A stretch of DNA of 64,000 nucleotides, taken from assembly GCA_964513515.1 (NCBI GenBank), contig CAZEMP010000001.1, positions 11,336 through 75,335 on the forward strand. The letters run 5' to 3'. This stretch comes from an uncultured Candidatus Saccharibacteria bacterium. Its GTDB lineage: Bacteria; Patescibacteriota; Minisyncoccia; Phycocordibacterales; GWA1-40-21. Shown piece by piece: positions 3,111-46,436 of this stretch (positions within the stretch are counted from its first letter, which is position 1; each line of letters opens with the position of its first letter). Under the pieces are notes generated by a model. It searched no databases. It was not told the DNA's origin and was given only the letters and a program-made list of their open reading frames with translations. The translations under genes were made by a program, and so were the position numbers.

Positions 3111-4040
3111 ATGAATTTTAATATTTACTTAAAAGAGAATAAGGACACAATAGTATCAGTAATTTTTCTATTAATTATCTTGTCTTTATTTCTTTATCCA
3201 AGATCAGAAAAAGAAATAGTATCATTAAAAACAAATCAAATTATTGAGAAAAATAAGACAGATTATCAGTCTTTTTTAAATGAGGTGGAAGCAAAATCTT
3301 TTTATGTTTATGATATTTTGGAAAAAAAGCCTATTTTCTCTAAAGATGAGCATGCCAAATTGCCGCTTGCATCAATAACAAAGCTGGTTGCTGGGTTGGT
3401 TGTCCTAGATATAATGCCTGAAACCACAGTTGTTACTATAACTAAAGATGACTTAGCTATGGAAGGAGATAGCAGATTATTTGTTGGAGAAAAATGGAAA
3501 CTAAAAGATTTGCTGGACTTTAGCTTAGTAACATCATCCAATGATGGAATGCATGCAATAGCTTCTACCTTAAATTATTATCAAACAGTAAATAATACTG
3601 ATACGATTAAAATAATGAATGAAAAGATTAAATCTTGGAATTTAAAAGACACTATTTTTATTAATGAGACTGGACTTGATATAGACGATAGTATGGGGGG
3701 TGCCTACAGTTCAGCATATGATGTAGCGATGATTTTGGAAAAGATCATAAGAGATAATCCTAGTTTAATATCAAGCACAAATAAACAAAAGGAAAATTTT
3801 GTATCTCAAAGTAATATTATACACGCAGCATCAAATACAAATGTTTCATTAAATGATATACCAGGTTTGATAGCTTCAAAAACTGGTTTTACAAATCTTG
3901 CTGGTGGTAATCTTGCTATTGTTTTTGATGCAGGTTTTATGCACCCTATAGCTATTGTTGTTTTGGGATCAACTATAGACGGAAGGTTTTCCGATATATT
4001 GAAGTTACAAAGAGCAGCTTTAGAAAAACTTTCAGAGTAA
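3111..4040 (+). CDS. D-alanyl-D-alanine carboxypeptidase (S11 serine peptidase) with N-terminal TM anchor
   Basis: LPLASITKLVAG contains the SxxK active-site motif; SSND (SxN) follows; cell-wall gene neighbourhood. Confidence 0.6.
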   Translation: MNFNIYLKENKDTIVSVIFLLIILSLFLYPRSEKEIVSLKTNQIIEKNKTDYQSFLNEVEAKSFYVYDILEKKPIFSKDEHAKLPLASITKLVAGLVVLDIMPETTVVTITKDDLAMEGDSRLFVGEKWKLKDLLDFSLVTSSNDGMHAIASTLNYYQTVNNTDTIKIMNEKIKSWNLKDTIFINETGLDIDDSMGGAYSSAYDVAMILEKIIRDNPSLISSTNKQKENFVSQSNIIHAASNTNVSLNDIPGLIASKTGFTNLAGGNLAIVFDAGFMHPIAIVVLGSTIDGRFSDILKLQRAALEKLSE

Positions 4041-40198: not shown

Positions 40199-41560
40199 CT
40201 ACAGTGCCTTACGCTTAGATGGATCTGCATCAGGTTTGTACTCTACAAATTTAACTAACCCATCAAGTTTTTTTCTATCCTCAGCACTTTCAAGTTTGTT
40301 TATATAATAATATCTTAAAGCTCTTTGAAAGGTCTCAGTAATATTTCCAGCATAAAAATTTAGTACGAAATCATGGATACGTCGTGGTTCCATACGGTCA
40401 TCGTATGTAAATAATTGAGGTTGGTCCTCAGCGACTTGTCTATTTTTTACAAGCTCTTTTGCAGCTTTATGAAATTCAATATATTTTTTCAATATTTCAT
40501 TAATACCAGGAATTTCTCTTATTTGCTCTGGCCTTAAAACTTCTTTACGAGATTTAAGGAACATATCAGATGTAGCACCTTGTGATTCATATTTCCCATT
40601 AAATAAAGCATCAGTTGAAAGAGTAAATGTGGACTCTGGCAATTCAGTTGGTAATTTTTTATAAATCCATCTACGTAGCTGAGCTGGGTCAAGTGGTTCA
40701 CGTCCAAAAAAACCCTTACCTGGTGGATTCATAAGTGCGACTACCTTAGTTTTGCCTCTATTCACAGGTAGTACCTCTGAGGCGTCTTCAGAAAGAACTA
40801 TATCACCTCCACGCTCAAGAGCATCTAAAACTTCATGCAAACGAATAAGTATATTAGGCGCGGCTGCATTAAATTCATCTAAAATAATAATTTTAGTTTT
40901 TCCATCTTCTTGTCTAAGACCGCTCGTTACCTTACCATCTGCAAAAAAATACTCTGGATCATTTGGCTTATTTTTATTAGGATTCGGGACATATCTACCC
41001 ATCAAATCTTCAATGTCAGTACTTCCATTCAAATTTATATAATGCACTTCCCAACCAAGCTCAGCTGCCATTTTTCTAACAGCTGTCGTTTTACCAAGAG
41101 ACGTTCCACCCTCAACAATTATTGGTGATCCACTTAAAAAAGCAACTGCAATATCACGTTGAAGAGGTAAAGATAACCCCGTATCATTTATAAAATCTCT
41201 ATAATGCTCTCTTTTTGGTACAAACTTAGTATTATTTATTTTAGCTTTTTCTAAAACCACTCCTAAATAAGAAATATCTTTATCACTTTCATGAATCCCT
41301 TCTACTGGGACAATCTCAACAATAAACTTACCGCTTGCTGGATCAGCTGGATTTGTATCTTCCAATATCTTTACTCTATATGAATGTCCCGGCTCTGGTT
41401 TAAGAGAATTTTTTGAAAGAAAAATTATTTTTCTACCAGGTGCACTGCTCTTATATTCCTTTTCGCCGTCAGGCCTTATTTGTAGCACAAACATAACATC
41501 ATCAAGAAGTTTTTCTCCTGTTTCAGGGCCGAGTTCATGGCTAAGTTGATTTTCTGTCAT
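40199..41560 (-). CDS. MoxR-like AAA+ ATPase (AAA_5 type) with ~150-aa N-terminal extension
   Basis: Walker A GGTSLGKTT, Walker B IIILDEFN; sensor/arginine region conserved. Confidence 0.7.
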   Translation of the reverse strand: MTENQLSHELGPETGEKLLDDVMFVLQIRPDGEKEYKSSAPGRKIIFLSKNSLKPEPGHSYRVKILEDTNPADPASGKFIVEIVPVEGIHESDKDISYLGVVLEKAKINNTKFVPKREHYRDFINDTGLSLPLQRDIAVAFLSGSPIIVEGGTSLGKTTAVRKMAAELGWEVHYINLNGSTDIEDLMGRYVPNPNKNKPNDPEYFFADGKVTSGLRQEDGKTKIIILDEFNAAAPNILIRLHEVLDALERGGDIVLSEDASEVLPVNRGKTKVVALMNPPGKGFFGREPLDPAQLRRWIYKKLPTELPESTFTLSTDALFNGKYESQGATSDMFLKSRKEVLRPEQIREIPGINEILKKYIEFHKAAKELVKNRQVAEDQPQLFTYDDRMEPRRIHDFVLNFYAGNITETFQRALRYYYINKLESAEDRKKLDGLVKFVEYKPDADPSKRKAL

Positions 41561-41656
41561 GGCGAAATTATATATTATCTTCCATATTCTGTCTAGATAA
41601 AATTACATAGTTTAAAGAGCATGAAAACGTATATTTACTTGATTTTAATTTACTAT

Positions 41657-41978
41657 TGACAAATTTAACTATATTTGCTACTATGTTCCCAGATGGAAGT
41701 GGTGATAATCAGGATATCTACTTGGTTATTGGAGTACAGGAAACACACGAGAATGAGCGTAGTAGCTTGTTTGAGTGTTGAAGTACCCAGGTTACATACC
41801 TGACCTGGGTGGGGGTTTGGTTAGCCATACCAAACTAGTCGTGTCTCAAACTTGCCACGGGTTTGAGAACGATTTCCTCAATGTCTTCACGAATTAAGAA
41901 GACATTGAAAGGAAGGCCTCATAACTCTGGTTGTTATCAGAGATTGAGGTAGGGGGCACATAGTATGTGTCCTTTTTT
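41657..41978 (+). ncRNA. candidate structured RNA unit U1 (promoter TTGACA-16-TACTAT to terminator GGGCACA-TAGTA-TGTGTCC + T6)
   Basis: No ORF >=60 aa; multiple internal hairpins incl. GGTTTGG-TTAGCCATA-CCAAACT; transcript approx. 41691-41978. Confidence 0.4.
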
Positions 41979-42035
41979 CGTATATAAAATCTGAAATATA
42001 AATTTTAAGGCGACTATACTTTCTAGATAATAATA

Positions 42036-42209
42036 TTGACATTTCTTACATCTCTGCTATAATATGGAGGCTGTCTTGATTGGCTAGCCATGCCAGTCAT
42101 TGATTTCAAACCTAGCCAAGGTTTGAAATGACTGAAAACAGTAAATAAGTGTCGGGAAAGAGAAAGGGGCTACACACATGACTCGTTATGTGTGTAGCCC
42201 TCTTTAATT
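42036..42209 (+). ncRNA. candidate small RNA unit U2 (promoter TTGACA-16-TATAAT to 13-bp terminator GGGCTACACACAT...ATGTGTGTAGCCC)
   Basis: Transcript approx. 42070-42209 (~140 nt); contains TTGGCTAGCCATGCCAG hairpin motif. Confidence 0.45.
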
Positions 42210-42289
42210 ATCCGACTACTGAATGCTTAATAATTTTGGCTATAATCATATTTAGTCAGTTTCTCTCACTACAGTTAAGTACGTACTTA

Positions 42290-42499
42290 TTGACATTATC
42301 TTTTATGCTTGCTATAATAGTTTTAGAAGTCAAAGATATGGAGATAGTTGGCTAGCCATGCCAATTATATCTATTCAGTTAAAGTTAAGTAAATCGTTCT
42401 TATGGATATTGGTTAGCCATACCAATTTCCATCGAATATATGTTAAAAACATATATTCAAGGGGGCTATATAACAATGTTATGTAGCCCCTCTTTATTT
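42290..42499 (+). ncRNA. candidate small RNA unit U3 (promoter TTGACA-17-TATAAT to terminator GGGGCTATATAACA..GTTATGTAGCCCC + T-run)
   Basis: Transcript approx. 42325-42499; two copies of TTGG(C/T)TAGCCAT(G/A)CCAA hairpin. Confidence 0.45.
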
Positions 42500-42526
42500 A
42501 ATAAAATTTTGCAAATTTCTGGACAA

Positions 42527-42934
42527 CTACTCCTGATAAACTAAACCAGCATTAGATAATACATCCAAGTCATTTTTTTGTAATATGTTTATATTATCTT
42601 TTAAAACAAGATAAATTATGCAGCTATTATCATAATCTGGAGAGAGGGTCTTGGATGTCATTGTTTCTTTGTCAAAAATCTCAACTTGGCCGGTAGGATA
42701 TTGAACCATAAAATCATAAGCATCTTTAGACATATTTGTGTCAACAGAAAAATATATTTTTAAGGTATTGAATGCATTACTAATATTCTCTACTTTTTTA
42801 AATCCCTCGCCACTTAGTATGGATGAGTAATTTTCTAATTCTTCAAGATTTTTAGCTATAACTAAACTAACCTCTTTTTGCCCTATAGCAGTTTTTAGGA
42901 AATCAATAAATTCCTTTTCATTTGTCATATTCAT
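42527..42934 (-). CDS. hypothetical protein (possibly STAS-like/DUF4325-like)
   Basis: 135 aa acidic protein between VWA gene and noncoding region; family guess weak. Confidence 0.35.
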   Translation of the reverse strand: MNMTNEKEFIDFLKTAIGQKEVSLVIAKNLEELENYSSILSGEGFKKVENISNAFNTLKIYFSVDTNMSKDAYDFMVQYPTGQVEIFDKETMTSKTLSPDYDNSCIIYLVLKDNINILQKNDLDVLSNAGLVYQE

Positions 42935-42952
42935 ATAATTTAATATATTGTA

Positions 42953-45094
42953 CTAAAATGTATCGAAATCGGCAATGGCTGCCTTTATTATGCCTGCCAA
43001 TTTCTCTGCCATTTCCTCTACTTTTATGTCACCTATGCTATTTGGAAAATATGAAGTGACCTCGGCTGTTCCAGCTCCTATTCCTAAACCTACTAATTTT
43101 ATATCAGTTTTTTTCAGAATATTTTCTATAGACATCACCAATTCCTCTCCTGAATTAGGCTCTCCATCTGTTAAAACAATCAAAAACTTCTGATCTACTT
43201 TTTGTTTAATCAGATTTTTACTAGCATGACTAATTGCCCAACCGGTTTCAGTCGTCCCAGCGACATTACTTATCATCGTACCGATTTTCTCTCTTACTTG
43301 CTTCGACATCTGCACTCCGAAGGTTTGATATTCATATATTGGTTTACCACGATCATTAAAACCTAAAACCTCAAACTTTATAGATAAACGATTCAAAACT
43401 TCTGATAAAACAACCACAGCTTTAAAGGTCTCAATTATTTTTTCTCCTTGCATGGAACTAGATAAATCTACAAGTAGTGAAATAGCATAATCTTTTTCCT
43501 TAGGCATTTCTCTTTTTTGCCACGCCTTACTTTCCATAGGTGAAATAGATTTGGCCTTTTCTTGTATTCTTTTTCCTATATCAATCCTCTTACCTATTCT
43601 AAATCCTCCTTTCCACCCGCTCATTTTGCGATCAACAAAAATTTCTCTCAACTCACTTTCTAATCTATCAATAATAGGAAGAACTTCTCTACGCACCTTT
43701 TCATATATATTTCTATCATAATTCAGCTCATGCGCTATTTTTTCTTTCATTTTTTTCAACATCTCATCATTTTTGTCCGGCAAAATCCTTTCTACTCTTC
43801 TGGTCGGTTCTTTTGTATCTTTAATCGAGTCAATTTCAACCTCTTTTCCTGATCTTTTTTCAGGACTCTCAGATAATTTACCTTGCAATTCATCTGAAAG
43901 ATCTTTTTCAAATTTCTTTATAGTGGCTTTAGCTTTTTCTCCAATTTCTTTTTTCTTCTCATCTGGCAATAAATCAACATATTCTTTTATTTTTCGCTTA
44001 AGACCTTCAGAAAAATTGCTCATATCAATCGGCTTAGCAGGGTTTTCTTGCTCTGCCTTATCATTACTTTCCTCATCTGTTTTTTTATCACCATCTTTTG
44101 ACTTTAACTTTTCAGCTCTCTCTTTTTTGAGATCATCGATAGCCTTATCTAGTGCGTCTTCGAGCTCTTTTTGTTCATCAGGAGTTAATTGTTCTTTAAA
44201 TTCATCGGGTATTTTACCTCGATTCCTGCCGTCATTTTTATTTTCGCTCTCACCCTCACCTTTTTGCATATCTTTTAGAGCCTCTTGTTTTTTTTGATCC
44301 TCAATATCTTCCTCGATAAGTTTTTTAAATTCCGGCCACACTCTATCACGATTGATCTCGTAAGATGCCTTAGCATATTTTTTAATCAAAATTTCTCCAG
44401 AATCTGCATCTTCCATAGATGGATATGTCCACCAAGAATCTCTGGCAAACTCAAGGGTCGATTTTACTACAGCTTTCACATCATCAGGTAAGTCTGCTGA
44501 AAGCTCAGTGTCTTTTCCTTGCACTTCTCTAAACCACTGATTGATATATTCAAATCCAGCTTGCATAAAACGTGGATTTTGACCAAGTTCTGCGTTAGCC
44601 TTTAATACTGACTCAGCTTTCAATTTTTGCATTAAGGAGTAAGAAAAATGCATCTCCTCTTTAATTTTTGGGTAATTCTCAGCCAAAAAATTATTCATCC
44701 TTGGATCTTCTATCGCATTCATCATAAAAGAGAAGCCGGGCTGTGACCACTCTTTTAAAGAAATAAAATCTGTCCTACTGATTCTTCTATGACCTCCCTC
44801 ATGCGATATAACAAAATAAAGATACTCTATCGGTTTTTCTAGAAGATCTTTAGGATCAATTCTTATTATGTTATTCTTAAAATCCCAATGCCACCCATCC
44901 CCAGGTTTATTTAACTCAATAGGAATTTGAAAATCTTTACCTACAAAATAAACAAGTGGTGATAGTATTTGTTTTTTTTGCAATATTTCTTTCTGTTGCT
45001 CAGGTGTAAAAGTTGCTAAAATTTCACTTTCTGTTTTTGAACCAATAGCATGATACACATCCTCACCCTCTTGATTAAGCTGATGTTTTTCCAT
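42953..45094 (-). CDS. VWA-domain protein with N-terminal HExxH metallopeptidase-like domain and central charged coiled coil (DUF2201-like architecture)
   Basis: ISHEGGHRRI (HExxH) near N-terminus; C-terminal MIDAS DLSSSM...TETG...LTDGEP; partner AAA+ ATPase nearby. Confidence 0.6.
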   Translation of the reverse strand: MEKHQLNQEGEDVYHAIGSKTESEILATFTPEQQKEILQKKQILSPLVYFVGKDFQIPIELNKPGDGWHWDFKNNIIRIDPKDLLEKPIEYLYFVISHEGGHRRISRTDFISLKEWSQPGFSFMMNAIEDPRMNNFLAENYPKIKEEMHFSYSLMQKLKAESVLKANAELGQNPRFMQAGFEYINQWFREVQGKDTELSADLPDDVKAVVKSTLEFARDSWWTYPSMEDADSGEILIKKYAKASYEINRDRVWPEFKKLIEEDIEDQKKQEALKDMQKGEGESENKNDGRNRGKIPDEFKEQLTPDEQKELEDALDKAIDDLKKERAEKLKSKDGDKKTDEESNDKAEQENPAKPIDMSNFSEGLKRKIKEYVDLLPDEKKKEIGEKAKATIKKFEKDLSDELQGKLSESPEKRSGKEVEIDSIKDTKEPTRRVERILPDKNDEMLKKMKEKIAHELNYDRNIYEKVRREVLPIIDRLESELREIFVDRKMSGWKGGFRIGKRIDIGKRIQEKAKSISPMESKAWQKREMPKEKDYAISLLVDLSSSMQGEKIIETFKAVVVLSEVLNRLSIKFEVLGFNDRGKPIYEYQTFGVQMSKQVREKIGTMISNVAGTTETGWAISHASKNLIKQKVDQKFLIVLTDGEPNSGEELVMSIENILKKTDIKLVGLGIGAGTAEVTSYFPNSIGDIKVEEMAEKLAGIIKAAIADFDTF

Positions 45095-45911: not shown

Positions 45912-45982
45912 TGGGGGATCGTCTAATGGTAGGACGCGTGCCTTTGGCGCATGCAATCGGGGTTCGAGTCCCTGTCCCCCAG
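45912..45982 (+). tRNA. tRNA-Gln (anticodon TTG)
   Basis: Cloverleaf by eye: acceptor TGGGGGA/TCCCCCA, anticodon arm CGTGC-CTTTGGC-GCATG, T-arm CGGGG-TTCGAGT-CCCTG; 71 nt, no encoded CCA. Confidence 0.8.
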
Positions 45983-46047
45983 CAAGTCAAGTTTTGAATG
46001 TGTTTTTACATTCAAAACTTTACTAGATGGGGAGCATTTGGGACTCG

Positions 46048-46112
46048 AAAGACGGAGTGCGACGGCACGAGTCGGGGTCGCAAGATTTTTCAGCAGAAAA
46101 ATACTTGTGACC
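46048..46112 (+). ncRNA. conserved 65-nt structured element, copy 1 (AAAGACGGAG-GTGCGACGGCAC-GAGTCGG-GGTCGCAAGATTTTTCAGCAGAAAAATACTTGTGACC)
   Basis: 90% identical copy at 57790-57853; differences are compensatory within predicted stems (GTGC..GCAC vs GCAC..GTGC). Confidence 0.45.
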
Positions 46113-46132
46113 GAGTCCCTGTCCCCCAGCAA
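46112..46132 (+). repeat. direct repeat of tRNA-Gln 3' end (CGAGTCCCTGTCCCCCAGCAA)
   Basis: Identical to 45965-45985 inside the tRNA; 147 bp apart; att-site-like footprint. Confidence 0.55.
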
Positions 46133-46139
46133 TAAAAAT

Positions 46140-46436
46140 ATGAAAAAACCATTTTTACATGCATTAGGTGCTGCTCTATACATTTTTACTTTAGTTTCTG
46201 TTGGAAGCTTTTTTACTTCTGCATTAAAAGGTCAAAAAGAAACTATAATCATTCCAATGACAATGTTGAGTCTATTTGTTTTATCTGCAGCAGTTATGGG
46301 ATTTTTATTTTTATCTGAACCATTACAATTACTTATAGAAAATAAAAAACAAGAGTCTGTAGCTTTTTTTGCTAAGACTACTGGATTCTTTGCGGGTTTT
46401 GCTGCTCTTTACGCAATACTATTGTTTCTTATTTAA
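46140..46436 (+). CDS. small hypothetical membrane protein
   Basis: 98 aa starting MKKPFLHALGAALYIF..., three predicted TM helices; ORF track's longer start (45951) would read through tRNA. Confidence 0.4.
   Translation: MKKPFLHALGAALYIFTLVSVGSFFTSALKGQKETIIIPMTMLSLFVLSAAVMGFLFLSEPLQLLIENKKQESVAFFAKTTGFFAGFAALYAILLFLI

Follow-up and report, generated by a model that had tools for sequence, protein, structure and literature searches.

A three-way-junction RNA element closed by a copy of the upstream tRNA 3′ end behind tRNA and tmRNA genes of Patescibacteria

Genes for transfer RNA (tRNA) and transfer-messenger RNA (tmRNA) are reportedly used as chromosomal attachment sites (attB) by integrative elements, with the crossover falling in the T loop and within the attachment (att) sites of tyrosine integrases, as Williams is said to have set out in 2002. 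The element described here lies behind a tRNA-Gln gene in a 64-kb stretch of contig CAZEMP010000001.1 from an uncultured Candidatus Saccharibacteria bacterium (the window, whose positions are used below unless another locus is named). It resembles such integrative elements in having a repeat of the tRNA 3′ end that starts in the T loop, a tRNA kept intact by a supplied 3′ end, tmRNA genes among its targets, empty sites in relatives, and tandem copies. It belongs to a family of multi-copy units of approximately 130-150 bp without an open reading frame (ORF) that lie 3′ to tRNA and tmRNA genes of Patescibacteria (the candidate phyla radiation, CPR), which make up a large and poorly understood share of bacterial diversity and have minimal genomes; the window itself looks Parcubacteria-like. 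In the integrated arrangement, an intact tRNA ending in the repeat copy A is followed by a hairpin, an antisense strand (A′), a three-way-junction core, and a second repeat copy (A″). Here we describe the anatomy of this element, the constraint on its core at the RNA level, its specificity for tRNA and tmRNA genes, the copying of their 3′ ends, its presence at some loci and absence from others, and its tandem and identical copies. The combination of a constant RNA core with a helix copied from the upstream tRNA points to a new kind of element, putatively mobile and with a putative function of its own; to our knowledge there is no precedent for a closing helix that copies the 3′ end of whichever tRNA lies upstream.

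The tRNA-Gln(UUG) gene is intact (45912-45983, + strand, called by ARAGORN; Rfam RF00005 at 45912-45982, 57 bits) and does not encode CCA, the discriminator G being followed by CAA. The 21-mer CGAGTCCCTGTCCCCCAGCAA occurs exactly twice in the window, both times on the + strand, at 45965-45985 (copy A) and at 46112-46132 (copy A″, or the tail). Copy A begins at T-loop residue C56 and takes in the 3′ strands of the T stem and the acceptor stem, the discriminator G and the three trailer bases CAA, and copy A″ reproduces this tRNA-Gln 3′ end exactly. No third match is present in the window even when three mismatches are allowed, and none of 100 shuffles contained any match. The two copies are 147 nt apart from start to start and enclose 126 nt; the sequence between them includes a GC-rich stretch, whereas the remainder of the locus has a GC content of 21-37%. 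A first-pass annotation of the sequence had drawn attention to this repeat, its spacing and the small segment enclosed, had likened the geometry to that left by integration into a tRNA gene, and had proposed a minihelix-like pairing (TGGGGAG...GAGTCCC) ahead of the second copy. All of this is borne out: the repeat extends from the T loop to the end of the tRNA or slightly beyond it, tmRNA genes are hit as well, and the pairing corresponds to helix P1 below.

The strand A′ (46028-46047, + strand; TGGGG-AGCATTT-GGGACTCG, equivalent to TGGGGAGCATTTGGGACTCG) is reverse-complementary to the tRNA 3′ end, except that a 7-nt internal loop takes the place of the junction between the acceptor and T stems, and is able to pair with either repeat copy, A or A″. 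P1 is formed with the latter, TGGGGAG..GGGACTCG (46028-46047) as the 5′ strand pairing with CGAGTCCC..CCCCA (46112-46128) as the 3′ strand. It closes a conserved 64-nt three-way-junction core (46048-46111, + strand) that was defined by alignment, by pair counts and by a covariance model, R1, which scores the tRNA-Gln core at 100.1 bits (E 5e-29). In this core the joining segments J1/2 and J2/3 read AAA and GGG, respectively. P2 (46051-46073; GAC-GGA-GUGC-GACG-GCAC-GA-GUC) contains the internal loop GGA/GA, and P3 (46077-46111; GUCGC...AGCA loop...GUGAC) contains an invariant G.U pair. The predicted fold of the 104-110 nt element has a free energy of -52 to -53 kcal/mol (z -6.0 to -6.6), and 0 of 200 shuffles folded as well. 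P1 looks like the stacked acceptor and T stems of a tRNA, with the core standing where the T loop would be. The possibility that A′ duplicates the 5′ strands of the acceptor and T stems of the tRNA was ruled out, as A′ complements T-loop nucleotides 56-60 and must therefore derive from the tail, in reverse complement.

Between tRNA-Gln and the element lies an AT-rich hairpin, recognised as an inverted repeat (AGTTTTGAATGT / ACATTCAAAACT; 45990-46019, + strand), which has no U-tract and at which no terminator was called. At other loci this position is occupied by a true terminator-like hairpin (a hairpin and T-run in L004 and L063) or by a longer conserved domain. Many loci (among them L057, L099, L106, L075, L019 and L035) share a 5′ domain directly after the tRNA, of the form (A)TGATCCGCGAG-hairpin-CGAGTGGAGCATCA(T/G)TGCG, and another subgroup has a GCAAG...CTTGC hairpin in its place.

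No known RNA family accounts for the element. ARAGORN and Rfam call nothing, and no cloverleaf, at 46028-46132, the only call being that at 45912-45983. When the element modules were compared with Rfam 15, only the tRNA reached the gathering threshold, the other matches lying far below it and representing miRNA/snoRNA noise on the hairpin. At E values up to 10 there was no match to hammerhead, twister, pistol, hatchet, HDV, riboswitch, HEARO or IS605-orfB families, and the RNAs of the signal recognition particle, 6S RNA, RNase P, 5S RNA and known riboswitches or ribozymes were ruled out by the same search. The tmRNA-like 5′ end of the element, GGGGAGCAUUUGGGACUCGA, made a tmRNA or split tmRNA a candidate; it was rejected on the negative ARAGORN and Rfam results and the absence of a T loop and of G3:U70, the third pair of this 105-nt element being G-C. 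We found no description of such an element in the searchable literature.

A pattern keyed on the two helix ends, run on one genome per species, gave a single match, locus L004, in which a near-identical tRNA-Gln is followed by a different terminator hairpin and by the same element, each internal stem of which has undergone compensatory changes; the gene that comes next also differs from that in the window. A second search of metagenome contigs, keyed on internal core motifs only, returned at least 120 loci, mostly from groundwater and sediment, with the core consensus GGAnUCG-AAAG-nC-GGAG-[hairpin]-CGAG-nC-GGGGUCG-[variable hairpin, loop AGCA/AGUA]-GUGAC-CGAnUCC. Covariation, analysed in 55 diverse copies with shuffles and slid partners as controls, gives strong support to the three-way junction of P1, P2 and P3. 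Standard pairs filled 93.1% of the cells compared with 73.1% in shuffles, 17 pairs had changed on both sides, and the covariation score was 0.528 compared with 0.150 for shuffles, with 0 of 500 shuffles reaching the observed value and slid partners giving 0.14 at most. In P2 and P3 the ratio of G.U to A.C wobbles is 86:5, and one G.U pair is retained in 54 of the 55 copies. Because G.U so greatly exceeds A.C in these stems, it is on the tRNA-sense strand that the core fold is under selection, and the core acts as RNA. The corresponding ratio in P1 is 11:14, with no strand asymmetry. By sequence, many copies are then followed by hairpins resembling intrinsic terminators.

The family is tightly associated with tRNA and tmRNA genes. 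A tRNA (of 14 types) or tmRNA on the same strand ends 22-250 nt upstream, typically 45-70 nt, in 100 of the 124 core instances listed: Trp 19, Arg 15, Leu 13, Glu 12, Ser 12, Val 7, Tyr 5, tmRNA 4, Lys 3, and two each for Gln, Asn, Gly, Met and Thr. The exceptions are mostly due to contig ends or to tRNA-like or tmRNA 3′ ends upstream that had not been called, and the extra copies found only with R1 also lie mostly directly behind tRNAs when the hit table is read against the tRNA calls. A core is present within 300 nt downstream of 95 of the 198 tRNA and tmRNA genes in the collected loci. Approximately half of the loci with a tRNA upstream have a tail that exactly repeats 12 nt or more of the 3′ end of that same tRNA; across the family the repeats begin at C56 and stop at the tRNA end or a few bases from it. 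The tail is complementary to the 5′ strand of P1, which covaries with T-loop position 59 as well, the corresponding pair 5-84 being AU in 20, UA in 18, CG in 8 and GC in 5 copies. From the identity of the tails and the covariation in P1 it follows that the closing helix of each copy is spelled in the sequence of the neighbouring tRNA, and that the core does not change with it.

The tail ends at the discriminator and is followed by CCA in 19 of 57 copies, and CCA is encoded by 12 of 57 of the tRNA genes. At 8 of 45 loci the distal copy has CCA and the tRNA gene a CAA-type trailer, which fits the distal copy being the original chromosomal end. These eight tails were also considered as a signature of reverse transcription, and are ambiguous in this respect since CCA-encoding genes are comparably frequent and a crossover model fits too. 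The tRNA genes without an encoded CCA mostly have CA(A/G/C/T) immediately after the discriminator, with 33 of 45 beginning CA.

In order to compare occupied and empty sites, we used as an anchor the gene downstream of the tail, which encodes a 98-aa small membrane protein conserved in Parcubacteria/Paceibacterota (46140-46436, + strand) and whose ATG at 46140 lies 7 nt after A″. The empty-site test suggested in the first-pass annotation was positive: in L131/L132 the tRNA-Gln ends 36 nt before the 98-aa gene, in L129/L130 and in L136 the order is tRNA-Gln, a NUDIX gene and the 98-aa gene, and R1 has no match at any of these loci. The closest homologues of the 98-aa protein (P0002, P0003, P0004 and P0007) are at loci that have no upstream tRNA and are uninformative for this comparison. 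Some database homologues carry listed lengths of 119-171 aa.

Duplication is also evident. Locus L046 has two exact tandem units of 135 bp, the boundaries of which agree with the order A plus trailer, A′ and core. In L030, two tRNA-Ser loci 930 nt apart have cores that are 100% identical and a 26-nt flank in common. The two copies of the core in the window are 89% identical, which is above the 95th percentile of identity between contigs, and other pairs on the same contig are only 48-63% identical. L030 also contains, at 3340-3500 (- strand), a complete tRNA-Ser(UGA) body with the core inside its T loop and no intact copy beside it, and removal of the insert in silico restores a tRNA that ARAGORN can call. 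This is the case for only 1 of 129 cores, and an interrupted full-length tRNA was therefore ruled out as the general form. Three further loci, L089, L119 and L123, combine the same core with three sets of flanks: L089 and L119 share 99.7% identity as far as the tail and part where the T stem meets the acceptor stem, and L123 has on its left the L089 tail and approximately 45 nt more in reverse complement. These flank swaps could be a rearrangement at the inverted repeat (an inversion switch) or an assembly chimera.

The second copy of the core in the window (57753-57877, core 57782-57861, + strand; R1 68.8 bits, E 3.7e-19) is held in a different scaffold, with two extra hairpins and an acceptor-like closing stem copied from tRNA-Asn (UCCGGAG / CUCCGGG). 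Its fold has an energy of -58.2 kcal/mol (z -6.8), and it lies approximately 200 nt upstream of the tRNA-Asn gene itself (58070-58142, + strand). Behind tRNA-Asn is a sister element recognised from its sequence and fold (58185-58322, + strand, z -6.9), in which the terminator is followed by an antisense strand TGCTCCGGAGA, a hairpin, a T-stem-like strand, a "type 2" core and a copy of the tRNA-Asn tail. The tail copy is an exact 17-nt match (58306-58322 to 58127-58143), and 0 of 100 shuffles reached two matches. The type 2 core is unrelated to the core of the tRNA-Gln element, and similar type 2 cores occur in L012, L031, L070, L079 and L109. Behind the tRNA-Tyr of L012 (1250-1770, - strand), a terminator, an anti-acceptor strand and a hairpin are followed by three different tandem cores, each closed by T-stem sequence and then followed by a mini-hairpin GUG-UACU-CAC, with one terminator ending the array. 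Nine repeat-bounded intervals lack the core of the screening pattern; three of them resemble divergent type 1 copies and the rest hold other cores. Between the second core copy and tRNA-Asn, at 57896-58021, there is a partial 5′ tRNA-Asn copy (acceptor 5′ strand and D arm) with an insert of approximately 80 nt that has type-2-like motifs (ACCUU...AAGGU-GUAC-hairpin with a UGUAA loop); a hairpin resembling an anticodon arm follows the insert, and the T arm is absent. In L004 (5330-5500, - strand) a partial 5′ copy of the homologous tRNA-Gln, upstream of that gene, has structured inserts at the D-loop and anticodon-loop positions.

The genes around the tRNA-Gln element encode VWA, AAA_5, a 150-aa protein of unknown function, the 98-aa membrane protein and DinB; upstream of the locus, on the - strand at 40199-45094, are a 453-aa AAA_5 (MoxR-like) ATPase and a 713-aa VWA-domain protein. 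Two mechanically called ORFs run across the tRNA and the element, one of 161 aa (45951-46436, + strand) and one of 86 aa (45923-46183, - strand). Both are almost certainly spurious, the real gene starting at ATG 46140.

We favour, with slightly less than even confidence, the interpretation that the element is an ORF-less, non-autonomous insertion unit that would encode an RNA mimicking a tRNA end. The unit, consisting of A, hairpin, A′ and core, would recombine within the segment of identity that runs from the T loop to the 3′ end of a tRNA gene. It would bring a replacement 3′ end (A, trailer and hairpin), the displaced original end becoming A″, and the essential tRNA would stay intact because this replacement is supplied by the unit. 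Before insertion, A would pair with the unit's own A′ and so close the same junction. Copies may spread or be homogenised through duplication and gene conversion. The RNA would be produced by read-through from the tRNA promoter and, as a mimic of the top half of a tRNA, presumably be trimmed by the tRNA-processing enzymes. This insertion model agrees with the geometry of the repeat, with tmRNA genes being targets, with the boundaries of the L046 units and with the eight loci that have CCA only in the distal copy.

Several observations weigh against it. No recombinase, transposase or reverse transcriptase is encoded in or near the unit, as judged from the neighbouring genes of the window and of the loci inspected, the 126-bp interior is too short for an ORF, and no autonomous relative was found, the scan of viral contigs giving 0 matches. 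The antisense strand of a copy matches its own tRNA, T-loop nucleotides 56-60 included, and some copies have a perfect antisense strand with a truncated tail. A plain att-site model does not explain how units could be retargeted to 14 tRNA types and tmRNA without breaking the recipient. The extreme conservation of the core and its invariant base pairs suggest a cellular or catalytic role over a purely selfish one, the similarity between copies could be due to gene conversion alone, and expression of the element RNA is something we infer from the sequence.

The nearest conventional account, that of an integrase-borne island or prophage that has decayed until attL and attR survive around an interior deleted to approximately 126 bp, is very improbable. 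It has in its favour the direct repeat of the tRNA 3′ end that starts in the T loop, the tmRNA genes among the targets, and the phage-like genes upstream of the element in L021 and L100. The interior, however, is a conserved, covarying structure of nearly constant size at more than 100 loci, there is no integrase nearby, and the core pattern has 0 matches in 2.9 million viral contigs. The related idea of a prophage attP was discarded on the last of these results and because L100, despite its phage-like neighbours, has a tRNA-like 3′ end just upstream. The extremely reduced integrative remnant suggested in the first-pass annotation falls with this account. The element is a complete unit of approximately 126 bp with a core shared by more than 100 loci and marked by compensatory base changes, and no integrase gene is present in it or beside it. 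Because the antisense strand matches each copy's own tRNA, a simple duplication of an att site is insufficient, and the alternative phrase of that annotation, a different kind of tRNA-linked insertion, describes the locus better. Next to no probability attaches to a chance repeat or an ordinary tRNA pseudogene arising by tandem tRNA duplication. Fragments of tRNAs do accumulate near tRNA genes, as with the partial 5′ tRNA-Asn copies at 57753-58021, but shuffling never reproduced the repeat, and the segment between the strands is not tRNA-like and belongs to a conserved family; it is this family-wide conservation that refutes the explanation.

Two further explanations, both unlikely in our estimate and neither more so than the other, assign a function to the core. 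According to one, the element is a cis-regulatory switch on tRNA maturation in which A′ pairs either with A, leaving the tRNA misfolded or re-closed, or with A″ as a decoy to form P1; the core would be a putative ligand- or protein-binding junction that stabilises P1, much as riboswitch aptamers do, and so controls the yield of functional tRNA or tmRNA from read-through transcripts. A switch would account for the match to the own tRNA, for the cis position on the same strand and for the presence of antisense and sense copies together; the core combines an invariant junction with variable stems, as aptamers typically do, and copies with a perfect antisense strand of 17-19 nt exist. For the full transcript of tRNA-Gln and the element, the prediction is -108.6 kcal/mol for an alternative fold with A and A′ paired and the tRNA body closed by the distal copy, compared with -101.3 kcal/mol for the tRNA and a separate element, so that the design is bistable on paper; such bistability is, however, inherent in any arrangement of A, A′ and A″, whatever its function. 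The hairpin between the tRNA and A′, often with a T-run, may end many transcripts before A′ is reached, only some tRNAs in a genome carry the element and orthologous tRNA-Gln genes lack it, and tandem duplicates and arrays with unrelated cores suit cassette-like insertions better. According to the other explanation, the core is a trans-acting component of a ribonucleoprotein (RNP) or a small self-cleaving or ligating ribozyme, and the tRNA-derived helix would serve only for processing and stability (through RNase P, RNase Z and the CCA-adding enzyme), much like the tRNA-like domain of tmRNA; a cleaving variant could release a 3′ fragment from C56 to CCA. The same core is indeed found in several settings: a T-arm-like helix (46028-46132), a scaffold of several hairpins with an acceptor closure (57753-57877), and arrays of more than one module that share a single acceptor-like closing stem. 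Its size, invariant junction nucleotides and multi-copy distribution resemble those of small ribozymes, and this explanation is also favoured by the tails that end at the discriminator, 19 of them followed by CCA, and by the tRNA-Ser(UGA) body of L030 with the core in its T loop. The Rfam search, on the other hand, matched no ribozyme family. P1 is often imperfect, or fully paired up to and including the discriminator, and so does not resemble a free NCCA end; an RNA acting in trans would have no need to lie next to a tRNA or to match it; and a housekeeping RNA is not usually present as many divergent copies in one genome.

A bolder proposal, which we consider rather unlikely, is that the core is a new catalytic or sensor RNA acting on the attached tRNA. 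It may be a mobile T-loop intervening sequence or ribozyme that would enter tRNAs and tmRNA at position C56, as RNA or as single-stranded DNA, and carry a spare 3′ end, in which case the cell could make the normal tRNA, make a tRNA closed by the distal copy, or release a C56-CCA "spare part". Alternatively, it may be the first riboswitch-like device to use a tRNA's own acceptor and T stems as its expression platform. If a catalytic or sensor RNA of either form were present, there would be an unrecognised layer of tRNA biology in the ultra-small CPR bacteria. In the collected contigs, each of which was chosen for holding at least one element, approximately one in two of the tRNA and tmRNA genes for which sufficient sequence is available downstream carries a conserved structured RNA. 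The process implied would be outside the textbooks, whether as a new miniature mobile element, a new mode of tRNA control or repair, or a new ribozyme or RNP. There is also a consequence for annotation, as the repeats look like att sites and would lead to false calls of island boundaries or tRNA pseudogenes, and they yield spurious ORFs such as 45951-46436.

The insertion unit that we favour can be compared with known systems. It differs from tRNA-targeting integrative elements in its length of 130-150 bp, in the lack of an integrase or ORF and in carrying the att segment in antisense as well; inside it is a conserved RNA fold selected on the sense strand, and one core family occurs behind at least 14 tRNA types, each copy being matched to its own tRNA. 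Miniature inverted-repeat transposable elements (MITEs), repetitive extragenic palindromes and the mosaic elements built from them (REP/BIME), the Correia/NEMIS and Rickettsia palindromic elements and cis-mobilizable elements derived from integrative elements (CIMEs) are likewise ORF-less, multi-copy, strongly self-complementary and present in some relatives but not in others. The terminal inverted repeat of our element (A′/A″), however, is copied from the target and is not intrinsic, and the element occurs only in the 3′ flanks of tRNA and tmRNA genes, in one orientation, with RNA-type covariation and invariant junction nucleotides. The triplet CGA flanks the core on either side, and likewise the optional mini-hairpin, and may be a 3-nt duplication or simply part of P1. 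In tmRNA, in viral tRNA-like structures (TLS) and in the MALAT1-associated small cytoplasmic RNA (mascRNA), an acceptor and T-stem helix closes a foreign structured domain, as here, and processing by tRNA enzymes is plausible in this case too. Unlike those scaffolds, the element has no analogue of the T loop or D loop, no G3:U70 and no ORF, is negative with ARAGORN and Rfam, and has an acceptor sequence that varies with the neighbouring tRNA. Three-way-junction aptamers of riboswitches have in common with it a compact junction, invariant joining nucleotides, variable stems and a P1 strand with an alternative partner, whereas the element is located downstream of a tRNA and not upstream of a regulated ORF. 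A riboswitch is recognised by its place in the 5′ untranslated region of functionally related genes; the genes that follow the element are unrelated across loci, and it is the tRNA ahead of it that is constant. Archaeal non-canonical tRNA introns, which lie in D and T loops, and split tRNA genes such as the half genes of Nanoarchaeum also involve structured inserts at tRNA loops, as in the T loop of the L030 tRNA-Ser, and a read-through transcript of the element can fold as a tRNA with a 147-nt T-loop insert; the organisms here are bacteria, however, no bulge-helix-bulge or splicing endonuclease has been shown, and 128 of 129 inserts have an intact tRNA ahead of them. The likeness to MITE-like repeats, to tmRNA scaffolding and to riboswitch junctions is thus in single respects only, and although the integrase that defines an att-flanked insertion into a tRNA gene is lacking, it is such an insertion that the element is most like in its working.

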